Origin: Cyanidioschyzon merolae
Taxonomy: Eukaryota
DNA: 64,000 nucleotides
Assembly: GCA_000091205.1 (NCBI GenBank)
Contig: AP006501.2
Direction: 5' to 3' (one strand)
The translations under genes were made by a program, and so were the position numbers. The notes beneath the pieces are model-generated. The model was not told where the DNA came from and ran no database searches. It was given only the letters and a program-made list of their open reading frames with translations. This document shows positions 1-35,761 of the stretch, one piece after another. The number at the start of each line of letters is the position of its first letter. The first letter of the stretch is position 1.

Positions 1-764
1 CCCCCCATTCCCCCCCATATCACTCCGGCCGGTTGGTCAAAGCGGAAAAGCGTCTGTTAATTCTATGTCTATTGTTTCAGATTCAATAGTGAATTTCCTT
101 CCGCGCTACAGCCGGAATTTATGCCATCTGTACTAGCGACCTCTGGCCCAGCAGAAGTACTACCGATTTTATCTTGCGATACTTTCTCTTTACATATGTA
201 TGTGTAGGAGCATCGCTTGGATTAACAGTATCATTAGGGAATTCTCTCCAGTTCTACCTTTGTTCACAAAAACTTTCTAGTTTCCGGCTATCCCAGGTTG
301 CCTGATCGATATTTGCTCTCGTTGCGGCGTCTATTTTTTCGAGCATTATTTTGAGCTGCCGTCGCTGTTCCCCACTCTCGTCTGCACTCTTCTGTTTATA
401 CATATTATCGTGCATCGGTATCGAGCCTTGAGCACTCGCCGTGGCATCTCCGTCGCTGGTGTGGATGCACTACGGAACAGATCAGCTTTCGCATACCACT
501 AAGCGCTTCGGATTTGGCTCGTTGCTCGCGACACGAAATTTAGACTTTTCATATATGCTGGGTGTCTCCAAGCTGGACAGGCAGTCTCTCTGCTGCGATG
601 GTGCGACGCGGTCTACTATTCGTCTACCGCAATCTAGGTGACGCTTAGACTCTAAAAAGCAGATCCAATTTCCAGAATCTATTGTTTTTCGATTGAGATT
701 GTAAGGTGGGTTGCATCACTCGCAACATTGTGGTCACCCGGACTAGAGGCTGGTAGAGTCTCGC

Positions 765-3410
765 TGCTCGCCGACCCTCCTCCCAAATGTGATTTTTTGA
801 CCACATGCGAATACTTCTTTCTGTTAACGTCTACAGTCAGTGGCGTTTGTATTTGCTATTCCGTTTTTCGATATTGTCTCTCTTTGGTATTTTCTATATC
901 GTCCGCCCTGGTAGCGCATCGCGAATTCTTGCCGTTACGTTACACTCTGTGCGTCTCGCCGATCATGGGGAACGTGTTAATGACCTCTTCTAGAGCGACT
1001 GCTCCATTGGGGCCACTTGCATTCTTAATCGAATGGTAGCAAAGTATAGTTTTGTATTCAATGGCGTTTCTAACTTCTAGTAAGAGTATTCAACTGATTT
1101 TCGCCATTCAACGCAGAGGTGTCCGACGAGTTTTTTGCTAAAAAATGTCAGACTTTTGTAATATGAGGTTGTGTGTTATGGATGGCCGTTGTTGCCGAAT
1201 ATCGGGAAAAAAGGTGACATAGTAGCTAATTCCAGAGGACTAGGAAAGAAGTGGAAGCGAAATGGGGAGGTGCTACGACGAACGCTGCACTAGTTTCGTG
1301 TCTATGTCGATATGGTTGTGGAATCCTGTCGTCTCCAACATATCAATGTTCCGTACGACTGAACGCTCCAAGATGCAATCAGAAACTGCGTCGACTCGCA
1401 CTCCAGGAATGATTGTTACTCTCCTTTAGAACTGACGCATTTGGTGAGCGAGCTCCATCGCGACGTAACGCACATCGCAAAATTGATCTTTCCGGAACAC
1501 TTTTTCAAAACAGAGTTTCATCTACTATCTGAATGCTTGCAATGGGGGCGCATCGCGGGGAAACTAGCGGGCGGATGCCTACGTCAAAATTTACGACAAA
1601 TACCGCATCAACGGTGCTGGACACAGGAGTGACGCAGATATTTACGAATACAGGGCAATTAGGTGCCTCATGAATGTGAGGAACCATAGGATCCTAATCC
1701 TCGATTGTATCATGATACGCGTTGTCATTGTGCTGTACCCGGGCCTGTTTTGCGAAGGGATGCTGGCAATCATCGATGGTATGAAGAACGATCGCCAGCA
1801 TGAACAGGAGATCATATTTGTCGACAAGAGAACATCACACAGGTGAAAAAATAGGTATTCTGTTATCCACGCAAGTATTCAAAAGCATCGTTCGGTCTCG
1901 GGACTTGCCAACCCAAGAGAAAAACCTGTCATGTATGGAAAATATGAAGAGAGATGTTCCTTCCTCATCTTGCCCTACTTCATGGTTTTTGGATCGAGAT
2001 CTCGAACGCAGGGCCGAAATGGAGCTGAGTATGGATACAATGGAGTATTGGAGAGTTGGCACTGAAGAACTCCTCCAGTTGCGCTTTTTTCGACCGGTTA
2101 TGCGAATTCCTGTCACATGTTTTGATTTTTGACTTTAGAGTTCTTTTCGCCTTCATGGAAGAGGTTTATCCAGTGCCCGATGGAAGCGACAGAGACGTAA
2201 CCGGCGAAGACCGGGATACCTACTAGATGCGGAAGTTCGAGTTCAAGCGTCCGAAACCGGCCAGTAAAAGGTATTCACCGGGGCCATGGATAACGATCGG
2301 GTATACATATATGTACACTTTCAGCGGTAGCAGGCATTTGTCCCATCCCGTCTTCTTTACCGCCCTCGCCGAAGCACGGAAACAGGAAGGCCGGCCATGG
2401 GATATATAATCCCCACGAGGACGACCTCGTCGTCGGCCTCAAATCCTGGAATACTGATTTTATAACCATCGTTGTTACAAGCGTTCGGAATATTTTACTG
2501 AATGTAGCTTACGTCGGAATGACAGGCGTCTTTTGAGGTTCTAGAGATCGACGTTCTACCCAGAAGCGGGAATCGTGAATACGAGGAAGAAAATTGAGAC
2601 TTGGGATGCAAAAGTGGAAGAGCATCTCGAAGTTGTGAGCGAGGTGAAGAGCCGAGGAGCGGATTTTCAGGCTTTTCAAGATTTCATGGATGTTCGTTTT
2701 GCTCATTGGGATGCGCTGTGGAAGGAGTATACAAAGCCCCGGTGGGCTTTTCTACGTGCGAATCTATACTGTCGGAAGCAGCATGCATTCGCGGACTTTT
2801 TCAATGAGTTGAGCTCCTTGAAGGAGAATGAAAGTCTGAGGCTCGTAGTAGCATATTGAGCATGGAGCTGGGCGTCGAGAAAGGGGACTACGCGTGCCCC
2901 AACGACAAGGACATTCAAAAAGTGTGCACGGCGTCTCGTTACGGTAACTGTAGATGAATTTGGAGCTTCGTATACACACCACGAGCTGTGATGTACACTC
3001 CACAGGGGCGAGATGGAAAAGTGCCAACGGAACCCTGAGGAAATAGCAAAGTACGGACCGCTGACGGAAGAGCAAATGGAAATGAGGGCAAAAGTTCGTG
3101 GACTCCTTGCATTAGTAGGTACAACGAACGATGGCGAGAAACGGATGGAGTTAATGAACCGAGACTTTAACGCCGCTATCAGTATCAGTAGATGTGCGGT
3201 GCTGGAGAAGAGACTTGCAAAGTAGACAAGAGACAACTTTGTTGGACAACCTCACAAAGCCGAACTATATGAGAGAAAGTTGGAAGCCGTAGTGGGTGGC
3301 CGGTCGAAAACGGCGGGGAGGCGTCTGCACATCAGCTGGAGACGTTATGTCTCGGGCGCCGGTGGCCACTACTGTACACGACCGGCGTTGTTCGACTTAG
3401 AAAGGCGTTT
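765..3410 (+). mobile_element. Fanzor/TnpB-like element copy 1. Heavily degraded, with an internal deletion that removes the RuvC-I segment; the left boundary is approximate.
   Basis: Frames at 1441-2130 are homologous to the N-terminal and middle region of the other copies (compare LVKEMRDDVTGIKTV / FFGKTFIRHLMLG). ORFs 2575..2859 and 3013..3225 carry HWDALWKEYTKPRWA, VDEF..SYTHHEL and MNRDFNAAISI. The conserved 3' tail ends GAAAGGCGTT at ~3401-3410. Confidence 0.6.
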
Positions 3411-3520
3411 CGCCGCGTAAGCTTCGCGAACCAGATCATCAGGAAACTTCAGGGCGCCGCGCTTAACTCGAAGTGCGCCGTACCTTCGGACTTGCTCGGA
3501 ACATCCGATGCGGATGAAGC

Positions 3521-5455
3521 CTAGCCGCAGGCACGACAACCACTTTGGGACGCGTCGCTCGAGCGTGGCAGAGTGATTGCTGGATTTTCATCAAAAAATC
3601 CGTATGGCTGTAGCATGAAGCCAGTGCTCATTGCCGGCTGCACTGGAAAGTCCTCCGGTCTCGGCAAGTGATGAATGCCGAACACGTGCCAGAGCACAAG
3701 ATCCGTATCCTCGATGCATCGATTCTGAGACACAAATCGAAGGATGCCGTCCTGTCCGTCCGAGAGATTCACGAATTCACCAGCTGGAAAGCGCTCTTCC
3801 GGGTCATAGGCTGTCACCCACAAATGACGACGGATAAAGCCGGAGCGCTGTCCAGAGGGTGAGTCCGGGTCAAGGAACGACGTGAGCGTATGTGCCGGTT
3901 CTAGTTTGTAGGCGACTGGCATATTAACACGATTCTTTTTGTTCGGATTCAACACTTTCCAATACCGGTGGCTGGCAGGATTCGCACAGCGACATGCCTC
4001 CAGCTCAGTTCGTAGCAGCGTCTCGGTGACGTAGTACGCATTCCCGTAGGGATTCGCAGCTGCATCCTCCGCTCGCGTATTACACTCTACAACAGAGTTG
4101 CGATCCCCGTCTACGCTGAGGTCCATCCGCACGCAGAAGTAATGCTGGTGAATGTGTCCTTCGACGCCAGGCATAACCTCAGTACCGTAGCGGCTCGGTC
4201 TGCCCGGCTCGCAGGCCACAGTGCTGATGACGCCAGTAGCCCGCATTTCGTACTCAATGGCGCCGTCCTGACGAAAATACCAGTATGAGGCGTACTCGTA
4301 ATTGCAAACCGTTGAAATGCTGGAGATGACGAGGCGTCTACCGCGCCGCGTTTCTGCACGGTCGGTGCGGAAATCCCAGTGCTTCCAGAGCAGGCCGGCA
4401 TCCTCTTCGTGAATGCAGATGGCGTTTGGTATGGTCAGCGGCTCGCCGTGCATCGTGGCAATGTGGGCGTCCATATAAACCACGCAACCGGTACAATCAC
4501 AATTCATCCGTAGCGAGTTCGCTAGCTTACCGATCCCGTACTCCCCAATATCAAAAACATTCTTTCGAAAGTGGGGCTCCACTGGCGTGCCGTACGGCAC
4601 GACCATCTCCACCAGGGAGAGCCTGCGAGCCACTGGGCGTCCAGCAAACCGAATATCATGCAGCGTGATACCCTCGCGTGCATTGAAACCAATCACCAGA
4701 GACCATTGATCCCAGGCAATTGTATGATCGTTCAGGACAAAGCTCGGTCCCTGGTCCTGCACAATGCGCAGCGGCTTCAAGGGCTTGCGAATATCAGTTC
4801 TCAGATTCGGTTCGTAATTGCATTCCGTTCGCGGTACGGGGATATTCTGCAGATCATAAACTTTGAGCACTTTATTGCCCAGGACATCCACCATCGCGTA
4901 AAGTCCTTCAACTGGGTGTGCATAGAGGTTGTCATCGGCATGATTCCGTACCCAGCAGAAAGCCAACGCAAGGTGGTGATCCTTCTCCTCAACGGAACCG
5001 AACGCCCCTGCCGACCACGGATCAATACAAACTAGACTCATGTCTTCGATACCGTGTTTCCTGCACGCAGCCTGGAACTCCGGACACGCCCGTACAGCTT
5101 CTTCTATAGCAGTGAACTGTTCAAGCTGGAGCATAGGGCGAGCGTTCGGGTAGTACTTTTTGGCGATTACGATCTCTTGCGAGAGCGAAACGATCAGCTT
5201 CCACACGCCAATAGAGCTTCTCCGGAAGATGAAGACCTCGGCCTCACGTTCGGTGGGCTTGCCGGCCACCCAGAGCTCTTTGGGTGGCTCGTGGAGCTGA
5301 ATTCGCTCAAAGAGCGGTTCCTCTGGGAAAGGTGCGCCCTGGCGGCCGATGCTGGCAGCACGTAAAATCTCCGCTGGCGTGAGCGGCGTCAACGGGTGCA
5401 TAATAGAGGTGTCCTGCCTCTTGTGCAGTACTGCAAAGACAACACGAGCAACCAA
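3521..5455 (-). CDS. Copper-containing amine oxidase (TPQ quinoprotein)
   Basis: 644-aa ORF. Carries the TPQ consensus N-Y-E-Y (CNYEYASYWYF) and copper-ligand histidines (GHIHQHYF). An alternative start is MHPLTPL at 5401. Confidence 0.8.
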   Translation of the reverse strand: MVARVVFAVLHKRQDTSIMHPLTPLTPAEILRAASIGRQGAPFPEEPLFERIQLHEPPKELWVAGKPTEREAEVFIFRRSSIGVWKLIVSLSQEIVIAKKYYPNARPMLQLEQFTAIEEAVRACPEFQAACRKHGIEDMSLVCIDPWSAGAFGSVEEKDHHLALAFCWVRNHADDNLYAHPVEGLYAMVDVLGNKVLKVYDLQNIPVPRTECNYEPNLRTDIRKPLKPLRIVQDQGPSFVLNDHTIAWDQWSLVIGFNAREGITLHDIRFAGRPVARRLSLVEMVVPYGTPVEPHFRKNVFDIGEYGIGKLANSLRMNCDCTGCVVYMDAHIATMHGEPLTIPNAICIHEEDAGLLWKHWDFRTDRAETRRGRRLVISSISTVCNYEYASYWYFRQDGAIEYEMRATGVISTVACEPGRPSRYGTEVMPGVEGHIHQHYFCVRMDLSVDGDRNSVVECNTRAEDAAANPYGNAYYVTETLLRTELEACRCANPASHRYWKVLNPNKKNRVNMPVAYKLEPAHTLTSFLDPDSPSGQRSGFIRRHLWVTAYDPEERFPAGEFVNLSDGQDGILRFVSQNRCIEDTDLVLWHVFGIHHLPRPEDFPVQPAMSTGFMLQPYGFFDENPAITLPRSSDASQSGCRACG

Positions 5456-6070
5456 GATTACCTCGGTTGCGCTTCAAGGCGCCTCAGCGTCTATCGTACC
5501 AAGGACTGCAACGGAAACCGGGAGCAATGAAGGAATAAATTCCGTTGAGCGATCAACTTGCGACATAGATGTACAGAACGTACAGGAGCAATCTGGGTGT
5601 CGGACACGTCTCCTTCATCGAGCGGGGAGGCGTCTCGCGCAGTGCACGCATCGCTCTCGGTGAGCGTATACCTGGGAAATCAGGCAGTCAACTGACACGA
5701 TGCGTATGCCGTTGAAGCGAAACGCGATCCTGATCAGTAGGGTGTTGTTCAACCGGAAAAAGTTGGATTTCAATTCAGGTCGTAGCCAAGAACATTTTTT
5801 CACTTCGTATTTGTTTCAACCTTCAAACAAGTCTAGACAAGTGGTTTTTCGCAGTATATGACAGAAGCGTTCAAAGAGCGTTGTTTTTTTAAAAAAACCT
5901 AAAAAAGGAAAGCTTTGAGAAAGCAAGTTGACGATCCTGGAGGCCCAGGGTCGCCGGCCGCTAGAGACAAACAAAAAGCAGTGCCGAGTCCAGAAGAAAA
6001 GGAAGAGAAGAAGAACCGAAAGCGGGATGCCCTACGTCGGAGGCGGCAAGAAACATGACTGTAGAACGAG

Positions 6071-8310
6071 ATGGAGGTGAAAACCTTTCTTCTTGGACAT
6101 ATCAAGGATCCCTACAAGGAAAAGTTGCGAGAAACTATCGAAAAACGTGTCGACTCGTACTCCTTGAGGATTATGAAGGTTTCTTCATAACTATTCCATT
6201 TGGTGAAGGAGATGTGTCGCGACGTAACCTAGATGGAAATGGTGGCATTCCGGACAAGTTTTTCGATAAGACCTTTATTCGTCACTTGATGCTTGGCACA
6301 GAGAAAGCGCGGAAGGAAAATGAGCGGGTGTATGCGCTCCACGAAAAACATCCCTTTTACAGCTTCAAGGGTACTCGGTACAAGGGTGACCGGGATGTTT
6401 ACGACTATGGGGCGATGAAGTACCTCACGAACCTGAAGAACCATTTGACAGAGAACCTCGAACGTTCCATGATACGCGCCGTGATTGCACTCTACCCGGG
6501 CCTGTCTCGCCAAGGAAAATGGGCGATTATCATAGGCATCACCAAAGATCGCAAGCATGAAGATGAGATCGAACTCGTCGACAAGAAGACATCACGTAAG
6601 AGAAAGAATGAAGCTTCTGTCATCCGTGCGGCCATACAAGTGTACCGTGCAGTCTTGGGGTTGGCAAATCCGACAGACAAGATATCAGAGTTGAAAAAAG
6701 ATAAGGAATGATACTATCGCCTCATCCTGCGCTATTTTGTGTTTCTGGACCGAGAACTCAAACGCAAGGCAGAGGCGAGGCTGAGTGGGGAAAAAATGAA
6801 GAGTGGGAGAGACGGAAGCCTTTCCTAATGGGTAAGCGCTTCGACGTGGTTCCAATGTGCAAGATCAAGTCATATTTGTGACTATTGACTCCGGCGTCCT
6901 TCACGCCATCATGAAGGAGATCAGTCCGGATTTCAGTGTCAGCGAGGAGGAGTTCTCCGGTGAAAACCGGGAGACGTACTGGAAGAATATCTTCGGTTTC
7001 AAACGCTTGCGAGTGAGCAAGGAAACGTTGTTCACCGGAATGATTGATACCGATGGAGTAGCCTAGTGTGTACACTATCGGCGGTTCAAGAAAGATCGTC
7101 CTGGTCCGCCGTCGGCTGTGCCCGTGACGAAGGATAAAGAAAAGAATGAGGCGGATCCTGCGACGCTGGTGGTGGAGGAGAACGAACTTATTTTTGACGC
7201 GGCGAAGGATGAAGAAAAGAATGAGGCGGATCCTGCGACGCAGGCGGTGGAGGAGAACGAACTTATTTTTGACGCGGCGAAGGATGAAGAAAAGAATGAG
7301 GCGGATCCTGTGACGCAGGAGGTGGAGGAGAACGACCTTATTTTTGACGCGGCGAAGGATGAAGAAAAGAATGAGGCGGATCCTGTGACGCAGGAGGTGG
7401 AGGAGAACGACCTTGTCGTTGACGTGGCGAAGAATGAAGGAAATACGGAGGCGGATCTTACAATGCAGAAAGTGCAGGAGAACGACTTTGTCGTTGGTGT
7501 GGACCCTGGAAATACGAATATCATAACCATCGCAGCACCCAAGCGCGCGGAAGATGGTACTGACGGCAACTTACGTCAGAAAGACATGCGTCTTTCGAGG
7601 TTCTCAAGAGCTAGATATTACCGAGAATCCGGTGTAATGAATGCAAGGAAGAAAACCGAGAAATGGAATTCAGGAATGAAAGATCTCCCGGAACATTTGA
7701 GCGGGGTGACGAGCCGAGGAGCCGACTTTGAAGCTTTTCGTAAATTCGTGGAAGTTCGCATGGCGCATTGGGATGTGCTGTGGGAGGAGTATACCATGCC
7801 CCGGTGGGCTCGTTTGCGTGTGAAACTGTATTGTGGGAAGCAGCGGGCGTTCGCCAACTTTTTCAATCAGTTGAGCGCCCTCAAGGAGAATGAAAATCAG
7901 AAGCTTGTAGTAGCGTATGGGGCAGGCCACTGGAAGACCCAAAAAGGAACTACGCCAGCTCCAACGACAAGAACGTACAAGGAGTGCGCACAACGTTTCG
8001 TTGCGATACCTGTAGACGAGTTCCGAACATCCTATACACACCATGAACTGGGATGTACACTTCAGCGAGTCGAGATGAAAAAGTGCCGGCGGATCCCTGA
8101 GGAAATCGCCAAGTACGGACCGCTAACAGAAGAGCAAATGGAAAGGAGCGCGAAAGTTCGCGGACTCCTTGCGTAAGTAAGTACAACCAGTGGTGGGAAG
8201 GAACGTATGGAATTCGTGAACCGAGACTTTAATGCCGCTATCAATATCCGAAAATGTGCGGTGCTGGAGGAAAGACCTCCAGAGAAGACAAAAGGCAACT
8301 TTGTTGGATA
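6071..8310 (+). pseudogene. Fanzor1-like (TnpB-family, RuvC) nuclease pseudogene with frameshifts and a nonsense codon
   Basis: Starts MEVKTFLLGHIKDP (compare MVVKTCLLAHIKDP in copy 4 and MAVKACLLQHTKDP in copy 3). Frame changes near 6200, 6711 and 7066, and a stop at 8177. Ends after CAVLEERPPEKTKGNFVG*. Confidence 0.65.
7130..7504 (+). repeat. In-frame tandem repeat, 5 units of 75 bp (25 aa, acidic: [25 protein letters not shown]), inside copy 2 immediately upstream of RuvC-I
   Basis: The units are visible directly in the translation of 7118..8176. Copies 3 and 4 have a single unit at the same position. Confidence 0.85.
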
Positions 8311-8579
8311 GCCTCTAAAAGTCGAACTATATGAGAAAAAGTTGGAAGCAGTAGTGGGTGGCCGGTCGAAAAAGGCGGGGAGGCGCCTGCGCGTCAGTTG
8401 GTGACGATTTGTCTCAGGCGCGGTTTTCCCGCCACTACTGTACATGGCCGACGTTGTTCGACTTTCGAAAGGCGTTGATCGCGCGCGAATTTCGCGCTCC
8501 ACCTCTGTTCTTTGGCGCTCTCGCAGACCTGCGTGTGAAGTAGTTTCTGGATTCTCGACGCAAGTTTCGATCTCATAGT

Positions 8580-10091
8580 ATGAACCACCGTACGCCTCTT
8601 TCGGCTCGAGGTGAAGCACGGGCTGCCTATGCAGCGTTTGTACCCGCTACTGGAACAGTGTGGTCAGCGTCGAGACACCGGTCACTTGGCCGGAGCTATT
8701 TCACGGCGTCGCGTCCCGGAACGCTCCAACCACACTGCAGCAGTCGCGGAAAGAGACACAACGTAGACTGGCTGCGCAGTGCCATGAGGGTGCAAGCTAA
8801 TGGAGCGTCGTACCCGGGACGAGGCAACGACCGCCAACTGTCTTCGTTGCCGTTATCCAGCGACAGTTCGGCCCCGCCGTGTCTGATTAAAGTTATCGGC
8901 GTCGGTGGTGGTGGCGGCAACGCAGTGAACCGTATGGCAGATACAGGTATTTCGGGTGTGGAGTTCTGGGCGATCAACACTGACGTGCAGGCGCTGAAGC
9001 GCTCGGCGGCACACCATACGCTGAGCATCGGGAATAAGCTGACCCGTGGTCTCGGAGCTGGCGGCAATCCCGAAGTGGGTCGCAAAGCCGCCGAGGAATC
9101 GTGCGACCAAATTGCAGAAGCCGTCCGTGGCGCCGACCTGGTGTTTGTGACTGCCGGAATGGGCGGCGGCACTGGTTCCGGAGCCGCTCCAGTAGTTGCA
9201 GAGGCTGCCCGCGAGCAAGGCTGCCTAACCGTGGGCGTTGTCACCAAGCCATTCGCGTTTGAAGGCCGGAAACGCATGAATCAGGCGCTGGAGGCTATCG
9301 AGGCCTTGCGCGAGAGCGTGGACACGCTGATTGTCGTGAGCAACGACAAGCTGCTTCAGATAGTCCCTGAGAACACACCATTGCAGGACGCATTTCGAGT
9401 TGCAGATGACATCCTGCGGCAGGGTGTTGTGGGCATCAGCGATATTATCATCCGCCCTGGTCTCATTAACGTAGACTTTGCCGACGTCCGAAGTGTCATG
9501 GCACATGCGGGATCGGCCTTAATGGGCATCGGCACCGGCAGTGGCAAGTCCCGGGCCCATGACGCCGCCGTGGCAGCGATTTCCTCACCGCTGCTGGATT
9601 TCCCTATCGAGCGTGCCAAAGGTATTGTTTTCAACGTCACCGGTGGAGAAGACATGACCCTGCACGAAATCAACCAGGCCGCTGAGGTAATCTACGAAGC
9701 AGTCGACCCCAACGCGAATATCATCTTCGGTGCCCTTATTGATCAGCAAATGGAAAGCGAGATATCCATAACGGTGGTTGCCACAGGCTTCCCTCAGCCT
9801 AACGAGAGCGCCAACAGTGGCGGCTCCTCATCTACATTGAATGCTACGGCAAATGAGTTTTACCAGGCTGGTGCGGCACCGTCGTCACCAAAGCTTGGGG
9901 GAACGAGCCGCCGCGGCGGCATTGCTGCGGATACCGCCACTCACTTTGGGCGTGATGCGGGCGCTCGGCGCCCAGCTCCGGGCCCTCAAGTGCCGCCTCC
10001 CAATCGTCAGGTCACACCTCCGCCACCACAGCCGGGACCGTCGCGCACCATAGGGAACATTCCGGATTTTCTGCGTCGATTCCAAAAGTAA
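8580..10091 (+). CDS. ftsZ: FtsZ, organelle-type (probably mitochondrial) division GTPase, with an N-terminal presequence-like extension
   Basis: Tubulin/FtsZ GTP-binding signature GGGTGSG ([14 protein letters not shown]), [15 protein letters not shown], and the C-terminal conserved peptide IPDFLRRF. About 110 aa of Ser/Arg-rich N-terminal extension precede the GTPase core. Confidence 0.85.
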
Positions 10092-11334
10092 GTTTGGCTC
10101 CGTGCTCGCCCAGTGCCGCGAAGCGCATGCCCAAGTGCTCTCCGCCAGCTGGACGGATCTGAAACGAATTGCATTCGCTCGGTGCGCTCGTGCCCCGCCG
10201 CTCCTCCGTCCGAAGTGCTGCTGTATATGTTTCCATGAGCGACTTCAAAAGCGCGCACCGGTTACCCATAGCTCACTTCAAACGAGACGACAAGACGAGG
10301 CGCGAGCGCTGGGTCTGAGGTAGAGGTTTCTAGCATTCAGGAATGTCCTAAAATCGTGTTTTGAGGGTCAGTCTCCACCAGATATCCATCCTTTTACAAA
10401 ACAGACAACATCTGCTGCGCGCTTTGCCTGGCACGTGAATCTCGAGTCCGCGCTATCGGACGCGTCTCTGTCGACACGTGGATACTGCGTGCGCGAGAAG
10501 AGGCGCAGGCCTTGCACCGCCGATGCGTTTCCGTCGCGCAACGCGCCTAGCGCCCATCGCAGCATCCACAGCGTGGAACGATCACACCGGCAAATACATC
10601 GCATTCACGCAATGTGACGTCACAAAACGCATACGCACGGATACGTACACACACGCACACGCGCGAAAACAGAACAACATGTGCATGCGTGCAAGCGTCG
10701 ATCTGAGGGTGTGCCCGACTGCTGCCGCAGAGGCGCTCCAGCGCGTGTCCATGCGAGCATCGTCGGGCATCGTGAATCAGAACTGCGCCCTCATGGAAAC
10801 GGGCTACGTAGAGTTTTTCCATGTAGGCTCGGATCTCCGTGCGTCTGTTACAGAGTCGTCGAGCGCATCTGTCAAAACAGGTGACGTTTGAGGGCAAACG
10901 CACCGCACCGGGTTCACGGGAGATCGCTCGGGGCATGCGGATCGTTCAAGCGAGCAGCCGCTGCCAGCCTTGAGCGCCATCATAACGCGATCACACCAGT
11001 AGGTGCGTCGCGTTCCCGCGGAACCTGTGCGCTGCAGGTCAGCACACAGACACACGGTCCATACGCGGTGCACTGATGATGCTCGGTGCTACGCAGCGGG
11101 GATACCTCGCGTCAAGAGAACCGGCTGGCGAGCAACATCCTGGCGTCTGGCGTGAAACGTGCCTTGTCCAGCGCACAGAAAGTATCCCGGTGGAATGGAG
11201 AGATGCTCATCAGTCAATCTTCGAATGCGGTGGCAGTCACGGTACCGAACGCACTTTGTGCGCCAGCGTGCGCCCCGGGGATGAAGCGGCACCCGCCTAG
11301 TGCGACGCTTCGGCACCGGGTCACGTAGTCGCAT

Positions 11335-12312
11335 TCACTGCTGCTGCAACTGTTGCACAACGACCGAGTTCAAAAGATTCGCCTCTGCGAGTGTCTGTGA
11401 TTCTTCCTCTAGCGTTCGTCGTGGTAAAACCGTTTGGAATACGAAAGGTGTACCGGCATAGTCCGCGCGATGAGAACAAACGAGACTTCTGAGGTCGCGC
11501 ACGCGGTGCGTGGTATTCAAACGCATGACCAGACGGGATCCATCAGCTAGACGAACCTGGACTTGCGTCGTGGGTGCGTCAGGGTCCAGGTCATCGGGCT
11601 CGACCACATCGCTGGTGCACGTGTTCGCCGTTCGCTGCGACGTCGCAGCGGGTTCCTTGGGAGGCTCCTCAGCTGCCTCACCAAGGCGATATCCTCCACC
11701 CTCAAACGGCCGCCGACGGCTCGCAGCTGCCTTATCCGAGGGTGCAGTGTAGTCTTCGAAAGAGCGGTCGACAAGATTGACACTAAGCTCGCTTAGGTCG
11801 GGCTCTTCGAGTTCGCGTGGTACAACCCCTGCGTGGATATCAGCAAGAAACGCTGCTTGCGCGGGGTCGTCCAACCTTCGAAGCTCTCCGTCATCCACAA
11901 TAAAACCGTTTCGATAGAACGTAATTGTCTTTGTAACGATGCGCGTCCGAGCGGGTGTCGGAGCGCCTGCCGGCTCGTACGCATCGCTCCCCGGTGACTC
12001 CGTGTCGCCGAGTCTGTATCCCGTGCCGTGGAACGCTCCACTTGGACGAGCTGCACTCCCAGCGTCCGCAACCTGCGGTTGCCCGAGCTGCTGACGGGCC
12101 CGATCCAGAATAGCGGAAACTAGACGGTGTCGTGAACTACCAGACTGACGCGCAGCCGAGTTACGCCGCGGGTCTTGTGCTGGGTTACCTCGGATCGTCT
12201 GACCACTGGATTCGCCTCCGGCATAGTACTCGTTGTCGGAGCCGTCCTCTTCAACGTCTTCGTCTTTCTGTAGGTCAGCTAAGGTTTTAAACGGCATGTT
12301 CTCAAATAACAC
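11335..12312 (-). CDS. p47/Shp1-like cofactor of Cdc48/p97 (SEP + UBX domains)
   Basis: SEP-like segment TITFYRNGFIVDDGELRRLDDPAQAAFLADIHAGVVPRELE. UBX-like C-terminus QVQVRLADGSRLVMRLNTTHRVRDLRSLV...PFVFQTVLPRR. Confidence 0.7.
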   Translation of the reverse strand: MLFENMPFKTLADLQKDEDVEEDGSDNEYYAGGESSGQTIRGNPAQDPRRNSAARQSGSSRHRLVSAILDRARQQLGQPQVADAGSAARPSGAFHGTGYRLGDTESPGSDAYEPAGAPTPARTRIVTKTITFYRNGFIVDDGELRRLDDPAQAAFLADIHAGVVPRELEEPDLSELSVNLVDRSFEDYTAPSDKAAASRRRPFEGGGYRLGEAAEEPPKEPAATSQRTANTCTSDVVEPDDLDPDAPTTQVQVRLADGSRLVMRLNTTHRVRDLRSLVCSHRADYAGTPFVFQTVLPRRTLEEESQTLAEANLLNSVVVQQLQQQ

Positions 12313-15300
12313 TGCTAACTGTCTCGACGCTCCTGGCAGAACTGCTCGCCAACTGCGCCTGCGTTACCAGACAGTAAAAAGCGTATCTTCGACAAATGTC
12401 CGGCTAGCGCTGCTGTGTGATGCTATTCAGCGCTGCTGGCGACGCGGTCCAGCCGTTCAGCGAAGCGGCGCGCTCATTCGCAGCAAGTTCAGTCATGCTG
12501 CAGCCGGTATGCGAAGCGAGTGCTCCCAGACAGACTCGACCTGAGCAGGGTCACTGGATCGACCAAACCGCTGCTTCCGTAGGGAGGGCTGGTCCATGAT
12601 CAGGGGAGCATCGCAACCTCCACAAAGGCGCGGTAGTCGCTTTCATAACTGCCGACATGCATCAAGCAGCCGAGAAATTCTGGTTGAACGTATCCGTCTT
12701 ACACGGTAGAGGTGAACGGTATGCCGCCATTCGCGAACCCATGGAGTAGTGTCGATTACCTCTACTTCAGCCAGCGCTGTATGGGCTCCGGGACGCAGCT
12801 TCAGTTGGTTCTGATCGCTCGTCTAAATGTTAGCCCTAGTCCGTGGAAAAGCTCAGAAACCTCTACAGTACCTGAGAACATGCTCGGATTCCGAAATAGA
12901 CTATTCTCTAGGGGTTTCCGGTAATCAAGTCTATCAGCGCACCAAACGCGTGTTTGGGATAGAGGCTGTCGCTGCCGTGGAAACGTGCGCGCATACGCAA
13001 CAAAGTGTTTTGTACGCGCTGCACGGAGTGTCTAGTCCGCGTGACCGCCAGTGCCCTACTCAACCACCTGGATACAGGGGTTGTGGTTCATTCACGGACT
13101 GGGATGCACCGGTGGCAGCGACAGCGTCCCAGCTGCTGCACGGTGCGATGCATCACACCTCGCCGCCTAAGTAGATATATTGAGCCTTACAGGATGCACA
13201 CACTAGAGAAAACTACCTCATCTAATCTTCAATGGCCCCCATGGGTTTGTGCTGCGTCCTAGTTCCGGGTATCCGAAACTCCAGTCAGCATGGCAAGTGT
13301 GCTGCGCGTGGTGCGTTCTCGCACTCCACCGACACCCCAGCGCAAGTCGATGCCTTCAACCGAAGACAGGGACGGGTCTCGTCGCTGTTTTCATTTGGGA
13401 CCTGCTGTGCCATGCCCTTATCGGGTCAAAAAGAATCTTCAGCCCTAGGTGGCATCACCAAATTTGCTGATATTTCGAAGAAGCCCTGCAGGTATCTCTG
13501 AAATTGTCCACAGCGCGCCAAGTGTCGCAGAAGCACCCGAGGCGCAAGACGCTGGTCGTTGGCCTGCGCGCGGGTCTAGCGGCTTCAGAACGGGGATCAT
13601 CATCTTTGGCAAGCATTTTCGAAAACTGTCCCCGGATGCGATGCTGTATGCGAATAGAGCGCTGAACCCATCGCGCTGGTCTGTTGAACGAGCCCGCTGA
13701 CCTGCAACCGATCGTTCACGTGGCCTGTGCATTGGAGAGCAGGTCAACGACAAGTTCCATTAACGAGGACGACTCCCACGTGGGAAGCGCATTAACGACT
13801 GAAGACGACTGCTCCCAGTGAGATGCAACTTTGGGCGGCTCCGCTGGCTGCCAGGTCTCGGTCCGCATCCAAGGAGTACAAGTTTACCACGTATCCGGCC
13901 GGAAAAGAGTACATCATAGACACGAAGGAATGCGGCTGGGATAAAAGGTTCTGCTGCAGCATGACGCATGCCCTACCCTATGCCCGAGTTCTTGTTCGGA
14001 GCTCCGTATTCGGATACGCGGTGTGCATCCGCCGACGCGCTCAGGAGCGCACAGTTCGCCCCAGACCCCATCCTCTAAACAAGCCTCCGTACGGGAAGCA
14101 GCTCTATCTTGTTGGAACGGGCAGTACGCAGTGGCATCTCGTAGGCCGCTGATCTCGCTTTCCAGGTCACTGGTGGCACTCGCTCATTCGTAGAATCATG
14201 ATACAAACCTTCGTTCCTCCAGCATCACCATAACCATTATCATTACCATCCGCGCTGGACCTGGGAGGCGCTTCGCAGCTCGGAAAATGCCTCCCGAGCC
14301 CGCGCACTGCATCCAGTAGGGGTGGCGTGCTCGCGAATCACGAGGTCGCTGCGATGCGCGGTGCAATGATCATGCTATTGAAAAAGAACAGAGACTAGCC
14401 ATTAAATAGCACCGAGATGACGGTTTCTTTTCCCCTCTAGGGTAAACGTTAAAAAGGGCAAGAGGCTTCTATATTGTCGAAAGCTTACCTTATGCGTGGA
14501 ATTTTCCCAAAGCTTGACGAGTCTGCTAGGCAAGTGCATTTGCTCCAACCAGTGGCAGGTGCTTTCCTAACACCTGAGCAGCTCACCCGCAATACAGTTT
14601 ATTCTGGGACTAGACGCAGTAAAGCTGCATATGGGCGTCGCCCGGATCGCAGTAGACCCCTAGCATATCGCTTCGCGCTGCCGCAGGCAACAGGCTTGTC
14701 TGCGCAGCTTGCTGGCTCCCAGAATGATTACGCACTCCGACCCCGTATCAGATGCACCACACCTCGAGCCGTCCCCATCAGCAGTATGGCGAAGCGGTTC
14801 CGTCTCCGTGCCGCAACCGCACCAGCGGTATAAGCGCTACGACGAGTGCTCTCGAAAGGCACTCGGCGCAAGATAGAACGTATCCAACGACCAGTACACC
14901 CGAGAGGAACTGTGATTGGTGGAACTCGCATGCAGGCTGCATCATGATGGACACTTTCCTGAAAGCCATTATCCATTCCGAATTGTGGGATCCTTGCTCA
15001 TTGTAAACAATCTGTCGAACAAAAACACATGCAATGAACGTACGCGAGAGCGACGCTGGCGAGGAGCGCAACGCTGCGCTGCGTTTCCTCCAGCTCGAGT
15101 CTAGCCTGCGTCCAGTATTCGTGCTTGTCGAGCGGATGCGAGTCGCGACGCATATAGCGGCTTTCCAAGCGAGTCCTCTGCGAAGCTTGCGTTCGCTTTC
15201 CGTGAAGGGAGGCTCTACGACCGGGTTGAGTTGTTGCTCTATTGCTTCAGCGCGGCAAGCTGAACACTTATCGTGGCGAGCGAACGTCTCCACAGGTTGC

Positions 15301-15399
15301 GCTCTGAGGAGTCAGCTTCTCGGGCGTGCAAACCCAGCGTCGTCGAGTGCAGCACCGCGTACTGCCCACGCACTCCGGCTTCTAGCCACTGTGAGCGCT

Positions 15400-15990
15400 A
15401 TGACCACGAAGACAGCGCTCGTTGCTGTTGCGAACGGGAGCGAGGAAATCGAGACGGTCACTGCGGTTGACACACTGGTGCGCGCGGGGGCTCACGTGAC
15501 CCTTGCATCCGTGGAAAAGGAGCTACAGGTGACCGCTTCACGAGGCGTCAAACTAGTCGCTGACCTCCTCATATCTGATGCGTCGTTGCGCTCAAAGCAG
15601 TTCGACGCAGTGGTGCTGCCGGGGGGCATGCCTGGCGCAGAGCACTTACGCGACTCGCAACCACTCATGGACCTGGTGAAGAGGCACTTGGAAACGGGCA
15701 AACTCATCGGGGCTATTTGCGCTGCACCTGCGGTGGCGCTGGCCAGCCACCACCTTCTCAACGATGTCAAAGCGACCTGTTATCCAGCGCCGAATTTTCG
15801 GGCGAAACTCACATCCCACGCCCACATCGATGATCCTGTCGTCCGTGACGGCCAGTTTATTACCTCTCAGGGTCCAGGGACAGCTATGGCGTTCTCTCTG
15901 GCCTTGGTGGAAGCGCTTTTTGGTCATGAGCAAGCTGAGAAAGTCGCCAAGGCGATGCTCGTAACGCTGCCAGCCGTTTCCAAACGCTGA
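15400..15990 (+). CDS. DJ-1/PfpI (ThiJ) family protein
   Basis: MTTKTALVAVANGSEEIETVTAVDTLVRAGAHV...GAICAAPAVALASHHLL, with a nucleophile-elbow Cys in IGAICAAP. The ORF is open from 15034; the upstream 122 aa is Arg/Ser/Ala-rich and may be a targeting sequence or non-coding. Confidence 0.75.
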   Translation: MTTKTALVAVANGSEEIETVTAVDTLVRAGAHVTLASVEKELQVTASRGVKLVADLLISDASLRSKQFDAVVLPGGMPGAEHLRDSQPLMDLVKRHLETGKLIGAICAAPAVALASHHLLNDVKATCYPAPNFRAKLTSHAHIDDPVVRDGQFITSQGPGTAMAFSLALVEALFGHEQAEKVAKAMLVTLPAVSKR

Positions 15991-17490
15991 GCGACGCCAC
16001 CTTTTAATGCACTGCATAGCGCCATCGCTGCGTAGAGCGCGTTGCTTTGTTAAAGAACGCTGCGGAAGCGAGACGGCAACGGCACGTTCGCGTTGCGCCC
16101 GCGCACCCAGAGACAGCGCCCAGGGAAATGTGTGCAACGTGACTCGAGTTGGTATGATCAGGTGAGAGGCATTGTATAGAGGGTGCCTTTTAAGCGCGAA
16201 CGAATCAGGATGACAATAGAATGGCGAAACGGCCACCGGGCAGGTCGGGATTCCAGGACAGAGCATTTCACTTGAGAAAGCGTGCCCACATTAAAACACG
16301 GGTTTCGAAGCGAGTAAATCTTTTCAAGAATATCGCTGAGAGAGCACGTAAACACCACGATTGCTTCCAGAGCGATATCCGAAAGATGAACCTACCATCA
16401 GCGCTGCATACCTCTACGCGAGTCGATGCGCAACACCAGCGACGGCAATGCACAGACGCGACGGGTCGGACAATCCTGATACTGCACATACCACCTGGTA
16501 CGCCTAAAACGTGTGCACAAGTATGGCGGCCACTGGCGGAAGAAATCATGATTTGCAGAATTGATGCCCCAGGGGTCGTGCTACGGGGCTTTGTCCTTCG
16601 GATGCGTTGCACAAACACCGATGGAGATAGACGCGTGCGAGCGCCGCCTTCGTATTGCACCAAATGCAGTTCACGCGCCTGCTCAGCCAACAGGCAGCAC
16701 TCGTTTCAGCTGCTGGCGATGGTGAAGAATCAGGGGTCCCAGGGGTGTCGCTCGTGCCGGCGCTCGGTGTAGCGATATGCGCCACAAGGAGGCACGCTGG
16801 TCGTCGTCTTGCACCAGCGTGCTCACCGAAAGTCGCTGCAGCAACTCGCAGCGATCGCCCAGGAAGCAAACTGACGCACTGAAGCACGCGTCGGGTCACA
16901 GCATCTTCATCGCAAACGAGTAAACAGGTGCACAAGATTGGGTAAAGGAGGTAGTGAACGCTACGCTCGGAATCAATTGTCCGTTGAGGTGATCGCTCAG
17001 CGGCGCATCCCCTGATGAACACCCTGCCTGCCAATACAGGGCGGTGTGCCGCGCTGCATCATTGCCTTTCGCTACGCAACAGAGGGCGTCTGAAGCGGGG
17101 CATCGTAACAAATCAGGTTCACTGATGGAGGCTCGAGCCGCGTATCCCGAAGCGGCTCCGAGACCGGGGTCCGCTTAGGCGGCATTATCAGGATCACGAA
17201 TGTCGTGCGCTTCACTGGAGGACCTTTCGGAATATGATCCTGCCCGCCTAGCGCGGGTGCCAGCAAGGCGGCGAGCGTTACCACGAATTGTGCGACGTCT
17301 GCAACCCGGCAGTGATTCCCGAGCCTGGGATATATCTTGGTTCACACACTGCTCGCACGCTGTTACGTAGTGCTGATTTATCATCGATATGAGCTTCTGG
17401 ACAGCCTCGTGCACTGATGAATACACGCAAGTTCGTATCAGTAGGGTGCTGTATGTGATCTGCCGCAGCGCTAAACACACGGAAGGTGCA

Positions 17491-18804
17491 CTACACCAGA
17501 GCCGATCGCAGCGCATCGTCTTCTGCAGCAACTTCGGGGTCGCGGCGCTCCGTGGCACGCTCCACAGGAATCACCTCGACCATGTGTAGTCCGATGCGCG
17601 ACAAGTTCCGCTGTACCCGATCGCGGTAACCCATATCCACACACTCCACTTGCAGGGCTCGAGCGATAAGTGCACGGATGTTCTCCGCGTAAAGACGAGG
17701 ACGTTCCATCTCAGTCGGTGATGGTTCATACAAGGGTAGATGGTGCACAGTCAACGACATCCACGGCTGGGCGAGTATGCAGGCCAGGCGCCACGGCGTC
17801 AAACCAACAAACGCCGGATCAAAATCCCAGAAGCCGTACCGCAGGGCAAGCGGGCGCACCGGGACTCCACTCAGAAAAGCGCCGGAGTGGAATCGCAAAA
17901 GTGCATCACCATTGGAGGTCGTTCCCTCGGGGAAGAGTACCAGCGGCGGATAGGCGTTGGCGTCCGCCGAAGTCAGACGCATCCGAATGAGCTCCGCTGT
18001 GCCGCCGGTTCGTGATCGCTCGCGGTCCACAAAAATGCTCTGCATCGCGGCAGCAATGGTGCCTACGAATGGAAGCCGCAGCACTTCTTTCTTTGCGACA
18101 AAAGCTGGGGCAAAGGCATAGATAAAGTACAGAATATCGAAGAAACTCACGTGGTTGCTGACGATCAGTGTACCACTTGAGAGATTCTGGCGCGAGCCCA
18201 GGTCACCAAACTCCCGAACGCGCCAGAAACCGTAAACTAGGAGTAGGAAACGCGAGAAGAAGCGCAAGACTCCAAAGACGATCCTTCGCCGCCATCGTGG
18301 CAACGGGTGCGCCGCCAAACTCGCACGCGAGACGCCGAGCGTCACCAAGAAAACCAGAATCCAAGCGAAAACGAGACAGCCGACGCTCAGCAACAATCGA
18401 ATAGGCAAAAGTACTATGAGCCCAAAGACTAGGCGAACGAGCGTACCAACACGAAAAGTACGATCACGACGAACAAACGGGTTCCGCACCAGTTTCCTAC
18501 AGCTGTCGCTATCGCCACCGCCGAAGCCGCAGCCGTCGACGCCTTTGGTAGTACCGTTGAGCGCTGCACCGGCAGCACTACGCCTTGGTAGCGTTTCATC
18601 AGACAGAGCGCCTGCGTTTTCCATAGCATCAGTTGACCTGTGGTCCGTGGCTCTGGTTTCAGCACAAATTGCTTCTGTTTGCGGTTGGATACGCGTGTAA
18701 CGTCCACGGTGAGCAGTGCGGGCGAGTTGGTGCATACCTGTCTGCGCTTGATACCTTTGCTCCAGTAGAGGTGCTGTTTCCATCAAACCAAGAACGGAAA
18801 ACAA
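17491..18804 (-). CDS. Lysophospholipid acyltransferase (LPCAT/AGPAT-type, PlsC domain)
   Basis: NPFV then TM helices. Acyltransferase motif I SNHVSFFD, motif III FPEGTTSNG, and PLALRY. The true start is uncertain (alternative MENAGALS). Confidence 0.7.
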   Translation of the reverse strand: MFSVLGLMETAPLLEQRYQAQTGMHQLARTAHRGRYTRIQPQTEAICAETRATDHRSTDAMENAGALSDETLPRRSAAGAALNGTTKGVDGCGFGGGDSDSCRKLVRNPFVRRDRTFRVGTLVRLVFGLIVLLPIRLLLSVGCLVFAWILVFLVTLGVSRASLAAHPLPRWRRRIVFGVLRFFSRFLLLVYGFWRVREFGDLGSRQNLSSGTLIVSNHVSFFDILYFIYAFAPAFVAKKEVLRLPFVGTIAAAMQSIFVDRERSRTGGTAELIRMRLTSADANAYPPLVLFPEGTTSNGDALLRFHSGAFLSGVPVRPLALRYGFWDFDPAFVGLTPWRLACILAQPWMSLTVHHLPLYEPSPTEMERPRLYAENIRALIARALQVECVDMGYRDRVQRNLSRIGLHMVEVIPVERATERRDPEVAAEDDALRSALV

Positions 18805-34501: not shown

Positions 34502-35761
34502 TCAAGGTGATTCGGGTTCGGGTTCGGATTCGGGTTCCAGTTGCGCAACGATAACGCTCGCATCGTCACCCTTCCCAGGACAAACAAGTCTCGGCATGCG
34601 TTCCGATATGTAAGGATCGCAATTGGTGCAGCTGGAGAAGTTATGTGCGAGTTGTGCCAGTTGATAGCTTAACAACACTGGATCTATGTGGGTAAAGGTG
34701 CCCAAGCAGGTCCGATTCGCCACCGCCAGATTCGAATCATACGCAGAAGAGACCGGACACACCAGCGCGAGAATCTGGCTCTCACTGATATTATCGAAAA
34801 GGCCATCCGTCCCAAATATAACCGTATCGTACGCTCGTAGTCGGAACACGTCGAGGTAAATGGGCACCACATCACCCGTACACGTCTCGATCGTGATGCT
34901 GGTGCGTTGGGTTTCCGGATTCCCCTCGATGCCGTTGAGGCTCGAGAACACAATTGTTTGATCACGAATCACGAGGAACCCGATATTGCCTGTACGCACG
35001 GCATAGAGCAGATTCCCATTGTTTGCGAGACATGCCGCCAGCACCGACACCGAACGCACTGCTTCGGGCGGCCGCATATGCGTCACGGCATCACGGAGAC
35101 AGCTGAGTAGTTCGAAGCGTGGTTGCCAGTTTCGTCCTCGAGCGGTGTCTTGCTCCGATTCAGAAAAAAGCACCTGTTCAATGAACCCGTCTAAGATGTT
35201 GCGCACATGGTACTGCGCCGTGTACATATGCGCCAGTTCTACATCGCGCGTGTCCTTAATCGGTGCGAATGCCGCGCGAACAACACCACGCTCAGTGGCG
35301 TAGAGAACGTGACCGCAGTCCGCAAGGCCCACCGCGCCCTTCCCCTCGCAAACGAAGACCGTGTCCGTCGACCCCGAGAGAAGCAACGCCTCACCAGGAA
35401 ACGTTGTACCTTGTTCCGCACTAGGACGATCGCCGATGATCTGGTACGTTCCACACCGAAAGACGCACCGCTGCTCTGAGACTGCAAGCGGACGCTGCTC
35501 GTTGTGCGGCTCGCTCCGCAACGACAGTTTCGCCACGCCGCACCGCCGCTGTGCCTCGTGTGAGTGCTGACCGCGCAAACACCTCAGTGCAGACGCCGAC
35601 GAGAAGAGGCTTCCGCGATAAACACACGTGTTAATAACGAACTGCAACGGATTATCAGGTTCAACTGGCTGCCGCAACGAGCTTGGGGTTTCTTTGAACA
35701 GAGTGCCGCCTCGTTGCCTGCCGAGCGACCGCATGGCGAAAACGTACCGCCTGCTTGGCAT
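34502..35761 (-). CDS. PP2C-family protein phosphatase, PTC7/PPTC7-like
   Basis: VIFGTDGLFDNISESQILALV (compare PTC7 ..SDGLFDN..). Also GSTDTVFVCEGKGAVGLADCGHVLYA and LLYAVRTGNIGFLVIRD. The N-terminus is Arg-rich and presequence-like. Confidence 0.65.
   Translation of the reverse strand: MPSRRYVFAMRSLGRQRGGTLFKETPSSLRQPVEPDNPLQFVINTCVYRGSLFSSASALRCLRGQHSHEAQRRCGVAKLSLRSEPHNEQRPLAVSEQRCVFRCGTYQIIGDRPSAEQGTTFPGEALLLSGSTDTVFVCEGKGAVGLADCGHVLYATERGVVRAAFAPIKDTRDVELAHMYTAQYHVRNILDGFIEQVLFSESEQDTARGRNWQPRFELLSCLRDAVTHMRPPEAVRSVSVLAACLANNGNLLYAVRTGNIGFLVIRDQTIVFSSLNGIEGNPETQRTSITIETCTGDVVPIYLDVFRLRAYDTVIFGTDGLFDNISESQILALVCPVSSAYDSNLAVANRTCLGTFTHIDPVLLSYQLAQLAHNFSSCTNCDPYISERMPRLVCPGKGDDASVIVAQLEPESEPEPESP

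Follow-up and report, generated by a model that had tools for sequence, protein, structure and literature searches.

Repeats and genes in the window

The window analysed here is a 64-kb stretch of Cyanidioschyzon merolae DNA (contig AP006501.2; ~56% G+C, intron-poor, with long eukaryotic open reading frames, ORFs) that carries a single repeat family, recognized by self-comparison and with a hidden Markov model (HMM) built from four copies. Judged by sequence comparison, the repeat is a decayed Fanzor1 (eukaryotic TnpB-like) family of the CMe-1A/TE-N2 type, present as six copies bearing the right end (RE), one internally deleted fragment and three solo 5′ modules. The right end of one of these, copy 2, lies just upstream of a plastid-type FtsZ gene in the same orientation. 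Across the window and related loci the RE stands directly upstream of co-oriented host start codons at roughly ten times the rate expected by chance, and this excess is statistically secure. The RE-bearing copies, located by nhmmer with element and module HMMs, by right-end alignment and from their ORFs, lie with their co-oriented genes as follows.

386–3409, plus strand: copy 1, long form with a diverged 5′ module; pseudogene
5607 (approximate)–8476, plus strand: copy 2, short 5′ variant with the leader GTGTCGGACACGT at its start
8348–8476, plus strand: right-end tail of copy 2, predicted structured omegaRNA-like scaffold
8477–8579, plus strand: interval between the RE of copy 2 and FtsZ, 103 nt of unique DNA before the ATG
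8580–10091, plus strand: FtsZ gene, plastid-type, 503 aa, Pfam Tubulin and FtsZ_C domains; co-oriented with copy 2
34502–35761, minus strand: 419-aa ORF, ATG at 35761; co-oriented with copy 3
35846–38260 (outer end approximate), minus strand: copy 3, 5′-short variant; pseudogene
38281–41476, plus strand: copy 4, full long form (~610-bp 5′ module plus Fanzor unit); pseudogene
61347–61598, minus strand: DPH3, ATG at 61598, CSL zinc-finger domain from residue 9
61672–62198, minus strand: copy 5a, right-end tail, 5′-truncated
62187–62615, plus strand: copy 5b, right-end tail, 5′-truncated; head-to-head with 5a
62643–63440, plus strand: DUF2505 gene (Pfam), ATG at 62643

Alignment of the six right ends revealed that their similarity stops at ...GAAAGGCGTT, that is, at 3409 (copy 1), 8476 (copy 2), 35846 (copy 3, minus strand), 41476 (copy 4), 61672 (copy 5a, minus strand) and 62615 (copy 5b). 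Together with the ORFs, this alignment confirmed all right-end and ATG coordinates of the initial annotation, which had placed five of seven copies upstream of co-oriented genes. Four of these placements hold, at FtsZ, the 419-aa ORF, DPH3 and the DUF2505 gene, with RE-to-ATG distances of 104, 85, 73–74 and 28 nt, respectively; four of the six intact right ends thus lie 28–104 nt upstream of credible co-oriented genes. The fifth, pairing copy 4 with an ORF at 41764, does not hold: this ORF begins with GTG, displays no coding signal and has no Pfam match, and the first credible gene past copy 4 (42218–42853, minus strand) is convergent and 740 nt away. Copy 1 is, as described there, convergent with the amine-oxidase ORF (3521–5401, minus strand), whose stop codon lies 111 nt from its right end. 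Fragment 7, which possesses no intact right end, neighbours a convergent GNAT acetyltransferase gene (46743–47204, plus strand).

The FtsZ gene product is 83% identical over its full length to Cyanidium caldarium FtsZ and equal to it in length (503 aa). The C. caldarium FtsZ locus (GCA_026184775.1) keeps the downstream synteny, contains no element and has an upstream spacer of 280 bp, indicating that the insertion of copy 2 is lineage-specific. The gene order FtsZ, SEP/UBX, DJ-1/PfpI and acyltransferase (window 10092–18783) is conserved in the same assembly, with spacers of 1.2–2.7 kb in the window versus 80–440 bp in C. caldarium; this expansion is partly element-derived. The 419-aa ORF with its ATG at 35761 had been labelled PP2C, which is at most a putative identity, as Pfam gives no match even at E ≤ 1; the ORF contains the PPM-like strings GTDGLFDN and DDASVIV. 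Between the divergent start codons of DPH3 and the DUF2505 gene, 944 of the 1044 bp (90%) consist of tails 5a and 5b. The two tails overlap at their truncation points (62187–62198), making a 944-bp quasi-palindrome, and copies 3 and 4 are also head-to-head, ~18 nt apart (38260–38281). Such pairs may reflect either independent insertions or inverted duplication.

For the window alone, a co-oriented start within 300 nt at four of six right ends gave P = 0.0012 against the 9.8% of the null model described below (P = 0.0025 for four of seven), and orientation by itself (4–5 of 7) was not significant.

Right ends and start codons at 56 sites

The tally was widened to 80 related metagenome loci with up to 10 kb of flank each, which are the best tblastn matches of at least 298. 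Searching with nhmmer yielded 99 right ends, which were clustered on the first 400 nt of flank into 56 distinct sites, window included; the 51 neighbouring proteins at these sites are all distinct. One locus, L070, represents the same chromosomal region as window 1–7.3 kb and is 99.3–99.6% identical to it in unique DNA, indicating that the fetched loci sample the same species as the window. Gene calls were ATG-initiated ORFs of 60 aa or more, scored by a dicodon model for which long ORFs served as training set, with greedy resolution of overlaps. The null model excised the elements and placed random intergenic positions on random strands under the same gene caller. The first feature downstream of the RE was found to be:

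co-oriented start codon: 22 sites within 100 nt, 12 at 101–300 nt, 3 farther
convergent gene end: 3 sites within 100 nt, 2 at 101–300 nt, 9 farther

At the remaining five sites it is another element copy (three) or there is no feature (two). The median distance from the RE is 84 nt to co-oriented neighbours and 412 nt to convergent ones. Given a neighbour, the null model yields a co-oriented start in 1.6% of cases within 40 nt, 3.8% within 100 nt and 9.8% within 300 nt. The observed figures are 12 of the 54 sites with a downstream neighbour within 40 nt (P = 4e-11), 22 of 56 (39%) within 100 nt (P = 3e-17) and 34 of 56 (61%) within 300 nt (P = 2e-20). The 50 sites outside the window replicate the result (19 within 100 nt; 30 within 300 nt, P = 3e-18), and a stricter gene threshold retains it (17/56 and 26/56 within 100 and 300 nt, versus 2.6% and 6.7% expected). 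The association with gene 5′ ends noticed in the window is therefore upheld in the wider tally, and the comparison of RE orientation and distance with random expectation, which the initial annotation had proposed, reveals both enrichment and bias when run on the 56 sites.

The neighbouring genes themselves are largely familiar. Fifteen of the 20 downstream ORFs scanned with Pfam are recognizable housekeeping genes, encoding among others TFB5, zuotin, a COPI-associated protein, a TPT transporter, an ATPase subunit, an XPD-like helicase, phosphoglucomutase and phosphoserine phosphatase. For TFB5, the COPI-associated protein, TPT and the zuotin DnaJ protein, the ATG lies 8–22 nt past the computed RE, and the called ATGs cannot be far wrong because the domains begin at residues 1–27. 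Three of these four loci lack the terminal hairpin of the element; homology there stops ~30 nt sooner, which leaves fewer than 60 nt to the ATG. At such distances the element end must form part of the leaders, and any upstream promoter must lie in element DNA.

These data bear directly on whether the pattern could be fortuitous. Any intergenic insertion into a compact genome lands close to some gene, with a co-oriented neighbour half of the time, which suits a gene-dense genome and the non-significant orientation count in the window. Native element-free spacers nevertheless have medians of ~1000 bp (divergent and convergent) and 1740 bp (tandem), and even the shortest native divergent spacers measure 140–213 bp; 39% and 61% were observed where 3.8% and 9.8% are expected. 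The tally, the null model, the stricter gene calls and the replication at 50 sites outside the window refute chance as the explanation, and we regard it as next to impossible.

An artefact of gene calling, redundancy or assembly was weighed in the same way. The gene calls are home-made, contigs display mosaic divergence inside repeats, and one ORF in the window, that of DJ-1/PfpI (15034–15990, plus strand), is probably over-extended at its 5′ end, since its domain begins at residue 126 and the C. caldarium orthologue has 198 aa. Against this, the null model used the same caller and the effect survives the stricter threshold; 15 of 20 scanned neighbours carry Pfam domains, several of them from residues 1–27, and the distinctness of the 51 neighbour proteins speaks against redundancy. 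Chimeras, moreover, form inside repeats and not at the junctions of RE and flank. An artefactual origin is accordingly very improbable.

Comparison of near-identical strains gave several further observations on the copies. Between window 203–8476 and L070, unique DNA is 99.3–99.6% identical and element copies only 89–96%; a hypermutation resembling repeat-induced point mutation was considered for this excess element divergence and rejected, transitions and transversions being about equal in number. In two cases (window versus L070, and L053 versus L026) one element copy is followed by different right flanks from exactly the RE onward. L053:1–982 and L026:2127–3108, for example, share 982 bp at 99.2% identity and are unrelated beyond. 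Such flank swaps could have arisen through recent movement, through ectopic recombination or gene conversion, or as chimeras that assembly created at the repeats.

Orientation and the behaviour of left ends refine the picture. Of the right ends, 37 face a co-oriented start and 14 a convergent gene end (p = 0.0018); 34/56 have a start within 300 nt, versus 15/80 of all left boundaries (p = 7e-7) and 12/33 of intact long-form left ends (p = 0.03). The family thus displays a strong general preference for gene 5′ regions, plus a weaker but consistent tendency of the RE to be the gene-facing end. This start-proximal, right-end-first placement is new as far as we have found, the element family itself being known; searches of papers on Fanzor and on C. 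merolae repeats turned up no report of a gene-start bias.

The element, its ends and its predicted RNA

The consensus of the copies encodes a protein of ~640 aa with a basic N-terminal stretch and RuvC motifs including NRDFNAAINI. All Fanzor ORFs in the window are pseudogenes with frameshifts or stop codons in every copy, and the longest related metagenome ORFs reach 586–593 aa. Close relatives of the Fanzor consensus number 212, almost all of them from JGI metagenomes, and a library-wide HMMER search returned 1432 representative relatives. Searches of Pfam, NCBIfam and PDB with single sequences or shallow profiles gave no match or faint ones, the latter only to guided_TnpB (E = 0.033) and Cas12f1-like_TNB, and an AlphaFold2 model of the family member P0011 was too poor for fold comparison (mean predicted local distance difference test score 39.6). 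A deeper profile of 46 family members matches the Fanzor1 structures of Parasitella (9cf0, E = 2.3e-19), Spizellomyces (8gkh, E = 4.5e-11) and Guillardia (9cer, E = 4e-5) across the RuvC motifs, which settles membership in Fanzor1. In the alignment of the 46 homologues D318, E490, D559, N561, A563 and N565 are invariant, and the split RuvC triad D...E...D, carried by the motifs GxDPG, DEFRTS and NRDxNAAxNI, aligns to the Fanzor1 structures. The catalytic Glu of Fanzor lies about six residues upstream of a zinc finger (review PMC13565253); in the segment DEFRTSYTHHELGC...EKC, candidate His and Cys residues begin 7–8 residues past the Glu and canonical CxxC pairs are absent.

The closest described family is CMe-1A, a Fanzor1 family of C. 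merolae (Bao & Jurka 2013, PMC3627910) with ~150 copies that are ~80% identical to their consensus, ~3 kb in length and devoid of inverted repeats, whose target-site duplications were not determinable and whose 5′ 635 bp also occur as a separate element, TE-N2_CMe. The window family resembles it in being ~3 kb long, encoding Fanzor1 only, having no terminal inverted repeats and consisting of old, diverged copies; its long form is likewise a 610-bp module joined to a ~2.6-kb unit, and the module also occurs solo. The likeness is one of architecture as described in that paper, and the paper is silent on position or orientation relative to host genes. The copy density of the window appears far above the figure reported for C. 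merolae, ~150 per genome of 16.5 Mb, which means either that repeats are concentrated in this region or that the lineage has many more copies. Self-comparison and end alignments of the copies revealed no terminal inverted repeats, the 3.2-kb element leaves no room for a second ORF such as the Y1 HUH transposase TnpA, and Bao & Jurka found no TnpA-type transposase in C. merolae (PMC3627910). For all copies except one pair, the nearest paralogue is at most 90% identical, indicating that the copies are old.

The fragment, the solo modules and an internal repeat complete the inventory of the family in the window.

7123–7497, plus strand: tandem repeat in copy 2, four to five 75-bp units of 25 aa each
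14364–15030, minus strand: solo 5′ module (TE-N2-like), found with the module HMM
43405–43729, minus strand: partial solo 5′ module, HMM positions 4–300
47962–48471, minus strand: fragment 7, internally deleted, HMM positions 220–427 and 2268–2507, without an intact right end
50485–50787, minus strand: partial solo 5′ module, HMM positions 3–275

The left ends of the solo modules lie 3–9 nt from the first ATG of the DJ-1/PfpI ORF (module 14364–15030), ~320 nt from the start of a plus-strand ORF that it faces (43405–43729) and ~255 nt from the ATG of a plus-strand gene at 51042 (50485–50787). The left end of copy 2 is ~205 nt from the ATG (5401) of the divergent amine-oxidase gene. Its Fanzor ORF is in two pieces, 6055–6711 and 7118–8176, and the 75-bp units sit in the linker directly before the RuvC-I motif DPGNTN; their number differs between homologues (e.g. 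P0003, P0006 and P0007).

The two boundaries of the element differ in character, the right end being sharp and the left boundary variable. Beyond GGCGTT weak conservation extends for 4–12 nt before falling to background, so that the true right ends are possibly slightly nearer the genes. Left boundaries fall into several classes: some copies begin with the long module, others with a leader of 65 nt starting GTGTCGGACACGTGTCC, and two or more further start points occur. A left-end hairpin, TTTTGT-n8-ACAAAA, can be read by eye in the consensus. Across 28 distinct long-form left flanks no transposon-adjacent motif (TAM) emerged, with ~0–0.3 bit per position. Helitron ends (5′ TC, 3′ CTRR) were tried and do not fit the termini.

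Over all loci the right ends form two subfamilies. A-type copies end in ...CGTTTTTCTTTTGAAAGGCGTT, their stem relying on G-U pairs, and in many cases TGTTTYCAGGGG comes next; B-type copies end in ...CGTTCGACTTTCGAACGGCGTT, commonly with GNTGGTGYG after it. The terminal hairpin has the form GCGTCGTTCGA-CTT-TCGAACGGCGT and is missing in ~13/56 copies, in which homology stops after CCACTACTGTACAC. Some A-type right ends continue as TGTTTYCAG|GGG, resembling a 3′ splice site, as if a sense element in the 5′ untranslated region (5′UTR) were spliced from the host pre-mRNA in the manner of an introner or IStron. B-type ends, by contrast, have no AG acceptor and no left-end class offers a GTAAGT-type donor. 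Cyanidioschyzon has very few introns, with a strict splice consensus. We consider splicing of this kind extremely improbable.

The sharp right end and the variable, truncated 5′ ends, together with the co-orientation and the lack of target-site duplications and inverted repeats, would also suit chimeras made through RNA, in which a reverse transcriptase switches from the 5′ end of a host mRNA to the 3′ end of an element RNA and the cDNA recombines at the host gene; the RE would then coincide with the transcription start site. The junctions, though, contain neither poly(A) nor untemplated bases, the 5′ variants are distinct leaders rather than a continuum, no reverse transcriptase is linked to the family, and an RNA 3′ end at the RE conflicts with a guide located beyond it. 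This origin, too, is very improbable.

In the tail of copy 2 a long-range stem is predicted between GCAGTAGTGGGTGGC and GCCACTACTG, along with internal hairpins and a terminal hairpin, GTTCGActtTCGAA, that is followed by GGCGTT. The consensus tail has a folding energy of -60.2 kcal/mol versus -42.8 ± 3.6 in shuffles (z = -4.8). RNAalifold returned a consensus structure from sub-alignments of the tail and none from the full 297-column alignment, and an Rfam search of the tail matched no family. A putative omegaRNA would measure ~130–150 nt, start near GCAGTAGT and have its 3′ ends 14–20 nt past GGCGTT. Fanzor 3′ transcripts reach 14–15 nt into the non-conserved flank (review PMC13565253), and the RE abuts host leaders; by analogy, the guide would be transcribed from the 15–20 nt just beyond the RE, making the leader of the host gene the guide. 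The drop in conservation 4–12 nt past GGCGTT is as expected if a variable guide comes next. At FtsZ the first ~15–20 nt of 8477–8579 would then be the guide segment and the remainder the host leader, and in an element-free allele the site to be re-cut would be the start region of the adjoining gene.

Origin of the association and related systems

Purifying selection should deplete insertions between promoter and ATG, so a tenfold excess there calls for either an integration preference or a benefit. The initial annotation had put forward the same pair of ideas, targeting of gene-proximal sites or supply of promoter or 5′UTR sequence by the right end; the right-end association and the ATGs 8–22 nt past the RE agree with this choice. 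The likeliest primary cause, in our view, is that integration prefers start-proximal DNA, because the excess is large and extends to the left ends of long copies; we hold this view with about even confidence. The element would integrate into short, probably nucleosome-free, transcriptionally engaged DNA just upstream of ORFs. Its strand bias may come from the insertion chemistry, or insertions may be lost quickly where their read-out transcription runs into a convergent gene. Genes with an ATG within a few tens of nucleotides of the RE would be transcribed from within the RE tail or through it.

Several points weigh against this preference. No empty alleles were found in the fetched loci and the copies are old, so that targeting and selection are not separable; exact-protein look-ups of DPH3 and the 419-aa ORF, aimed at other strains, returned no record. 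Neither a transposase, a target-site duplication nor a left-flank TAM was found in the fetched loci. In the paired test, restricted to elements with informative genes at both ends, a start was near the RE only in 11 cases, near the left end only in three and near both in five (p = 0.057), which makes the orientation bias no more than suggestive in that comparison. Long-form left ends are themselves enriched near divergent gene starts (12/33 within 300 nt), so that some of the effect is a general bias toward 5′ regions and short divergent spacers and not peculiar to the RE. First-ATG ORFs from a home-made caller can be over-extended, as in the DJ-1 case, and the loci are a best-matching subset from metagenome assemblies that are possibly chimeric inside repeats. 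Finally, covariation in the tail is not above controls, the copies being neutrally decaying pseudogenes.

The benefit may instead lie with the host. Insertion would then be untargeted, copies surviving mainly where transcription leaving the RE tail drives a co-oriented downstream gene or tolerates it, and the hosts would come to depend on the tail. The verified ATGs just 8–22 nt past the RE, the DPH3/DUF2505 spacer made up to 90% of element tails and the under-representation of convergent arrangements (14 versus 37) all accord with such promoter donation, as does a TATA-like CTATATGAG at 8327–8335, ~20 nt upstream of the predicted scaffold, whose near-invariance was read by eye in the alignment and which serves as a lead only. 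The conservation of the tails points the other way. Over the last 300 nt, tails of start-adjacent copies are 86–87% identical to the consensus versus 88.5% for other copies, and identity is flat along the element (84–90%), the tail being no better conserved than the body. This also leaves without support the suggestion that broken copies persist because their neighbours need them, which was part of the earlier proposal on promoter supply. Filtering of random insertions would hardly yield a tenfold excess, given that insertions between promoter and ATG are normally among the most harmful, and enrichment at the left ends of long copies is not explained by the RE tail. Promoter donation is a tentative and less likely candidate for the primary cause.

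The position of the putative guide suggests a further kind of benefit, this time to the element. [quoted passage not shown] Closeness to starts is indeed greater at the RE than at the left end (22 versus 4 within 100 nt), and at the 12 sites with an ATG within 40 nt a guide of 15–20 nt would lie near or overlap the start codon. Convergent gene ends, which are equally constrained, are not enriched (5/56 within 300 nt versus ~9% expected); the process needs sex or diploidy and an active Fanzor, all window copies being dead; and left flanks reveal no TAM motif. As the cause of the placement it appears distinctly improbable.

Returning to integration preference, a bolder form of it can be stated. 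Integration would be strand-specific at transcription-start-proximal DNA, the guides would be leader or start-codon regions of housekeeping genes, Fanzor would act as a gene-start-anchored homing system, and a sizeable share of genes would be transcribed from or through the tails; a possible route would be single-strand, RE-anchored insertion into the displaced strand of promoter-proximal R-loops or transcription bubbles. As a whole this scheme is unlikely.

Whichever cause applies, the region upstream of many host genes now consists of element DNA, and at the repeats the 5′ ends of genes will be broken or mis-called in algal assemblies and annotations of this kind. The tenfold, strand-biased RE excess offers a testable handle on site choice and host effects of Fanzors with no recognizable transposase. 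It predicts host-leader guides and chimeric transcripts running from the RE into host genes, and, for a eukaryotic genome that is very compact, either a new mode of target selection or promoter donation on a wide scale. Because Cyanidioschyzon can be transformed, it allows direct tests of whether the tail acts as a promoter and whether a reconstructed Fanzor cleaves.

Among known systems, the TnpB-omegaRNA modules of the IS200/IS605 and IS607 families share with the window family a nuclease gene that reads toward the RE, a predicted structured RNA in the tail, a guide taken from the flank past the RE (here by analogy) and the lack of inverted repeats and target-site duplications. Subterminal hairpins at both ends additionally resemble those of IS200/IS605, as a resemblance only. 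The window family differs in that neither a TnpA nor a left-flank TAM was found, in its eukaryotic host and in its variable left boundary, and we know of no gene-start bias in IS200/IS605 or IS607.

Contact between TnpB-family systems and host gene expression, through the RE or the guide, is known from IStrons, which combine TnpB with a group I intron, and from TldRs, nuclease-dead TnpB repressors guided to promoters (bioRxiv 10.1101/2023.11.20.567912; PMC10705468). IStrons are tolerated inside host transcripts, and TldR guides match promoter-proximal host DNA. The window copies differ from both, as they have no intron signature and are pseudogenes standing in cis beside many different genes.

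Bacterial insertion sequences with outward promoters, such as ISAba1 and IS10 with its pOUT promoter, activate downstream genes and likewise have an element end directly upstream of a co-oriented host gene, whose transcription begins in that end or crosses it. They differ from the window family in that promoter activity here is putative; the tails of its start-adjacent copies display no extra conservation. Promoter-proximal integration is a property of Tf1 of S. pombe, of the P element and of mPing and other miniature inverted-repeat transposable elements, and the window family is like them in its enrichment within a few hundred base pairs upstream of ORFs and in favouring 5′ over 3′ intergenic regions. 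To our knowledge Tf1, the P element and mPing insert with little or no orientation bias and farther from the ATG, whereas in the window family the RE frequently lies within 50 nt of the ATG and the strand bias is 37:14. The family differs from them further in encoding an RNA-guided nuclease, whose guide would be that very host DNA.

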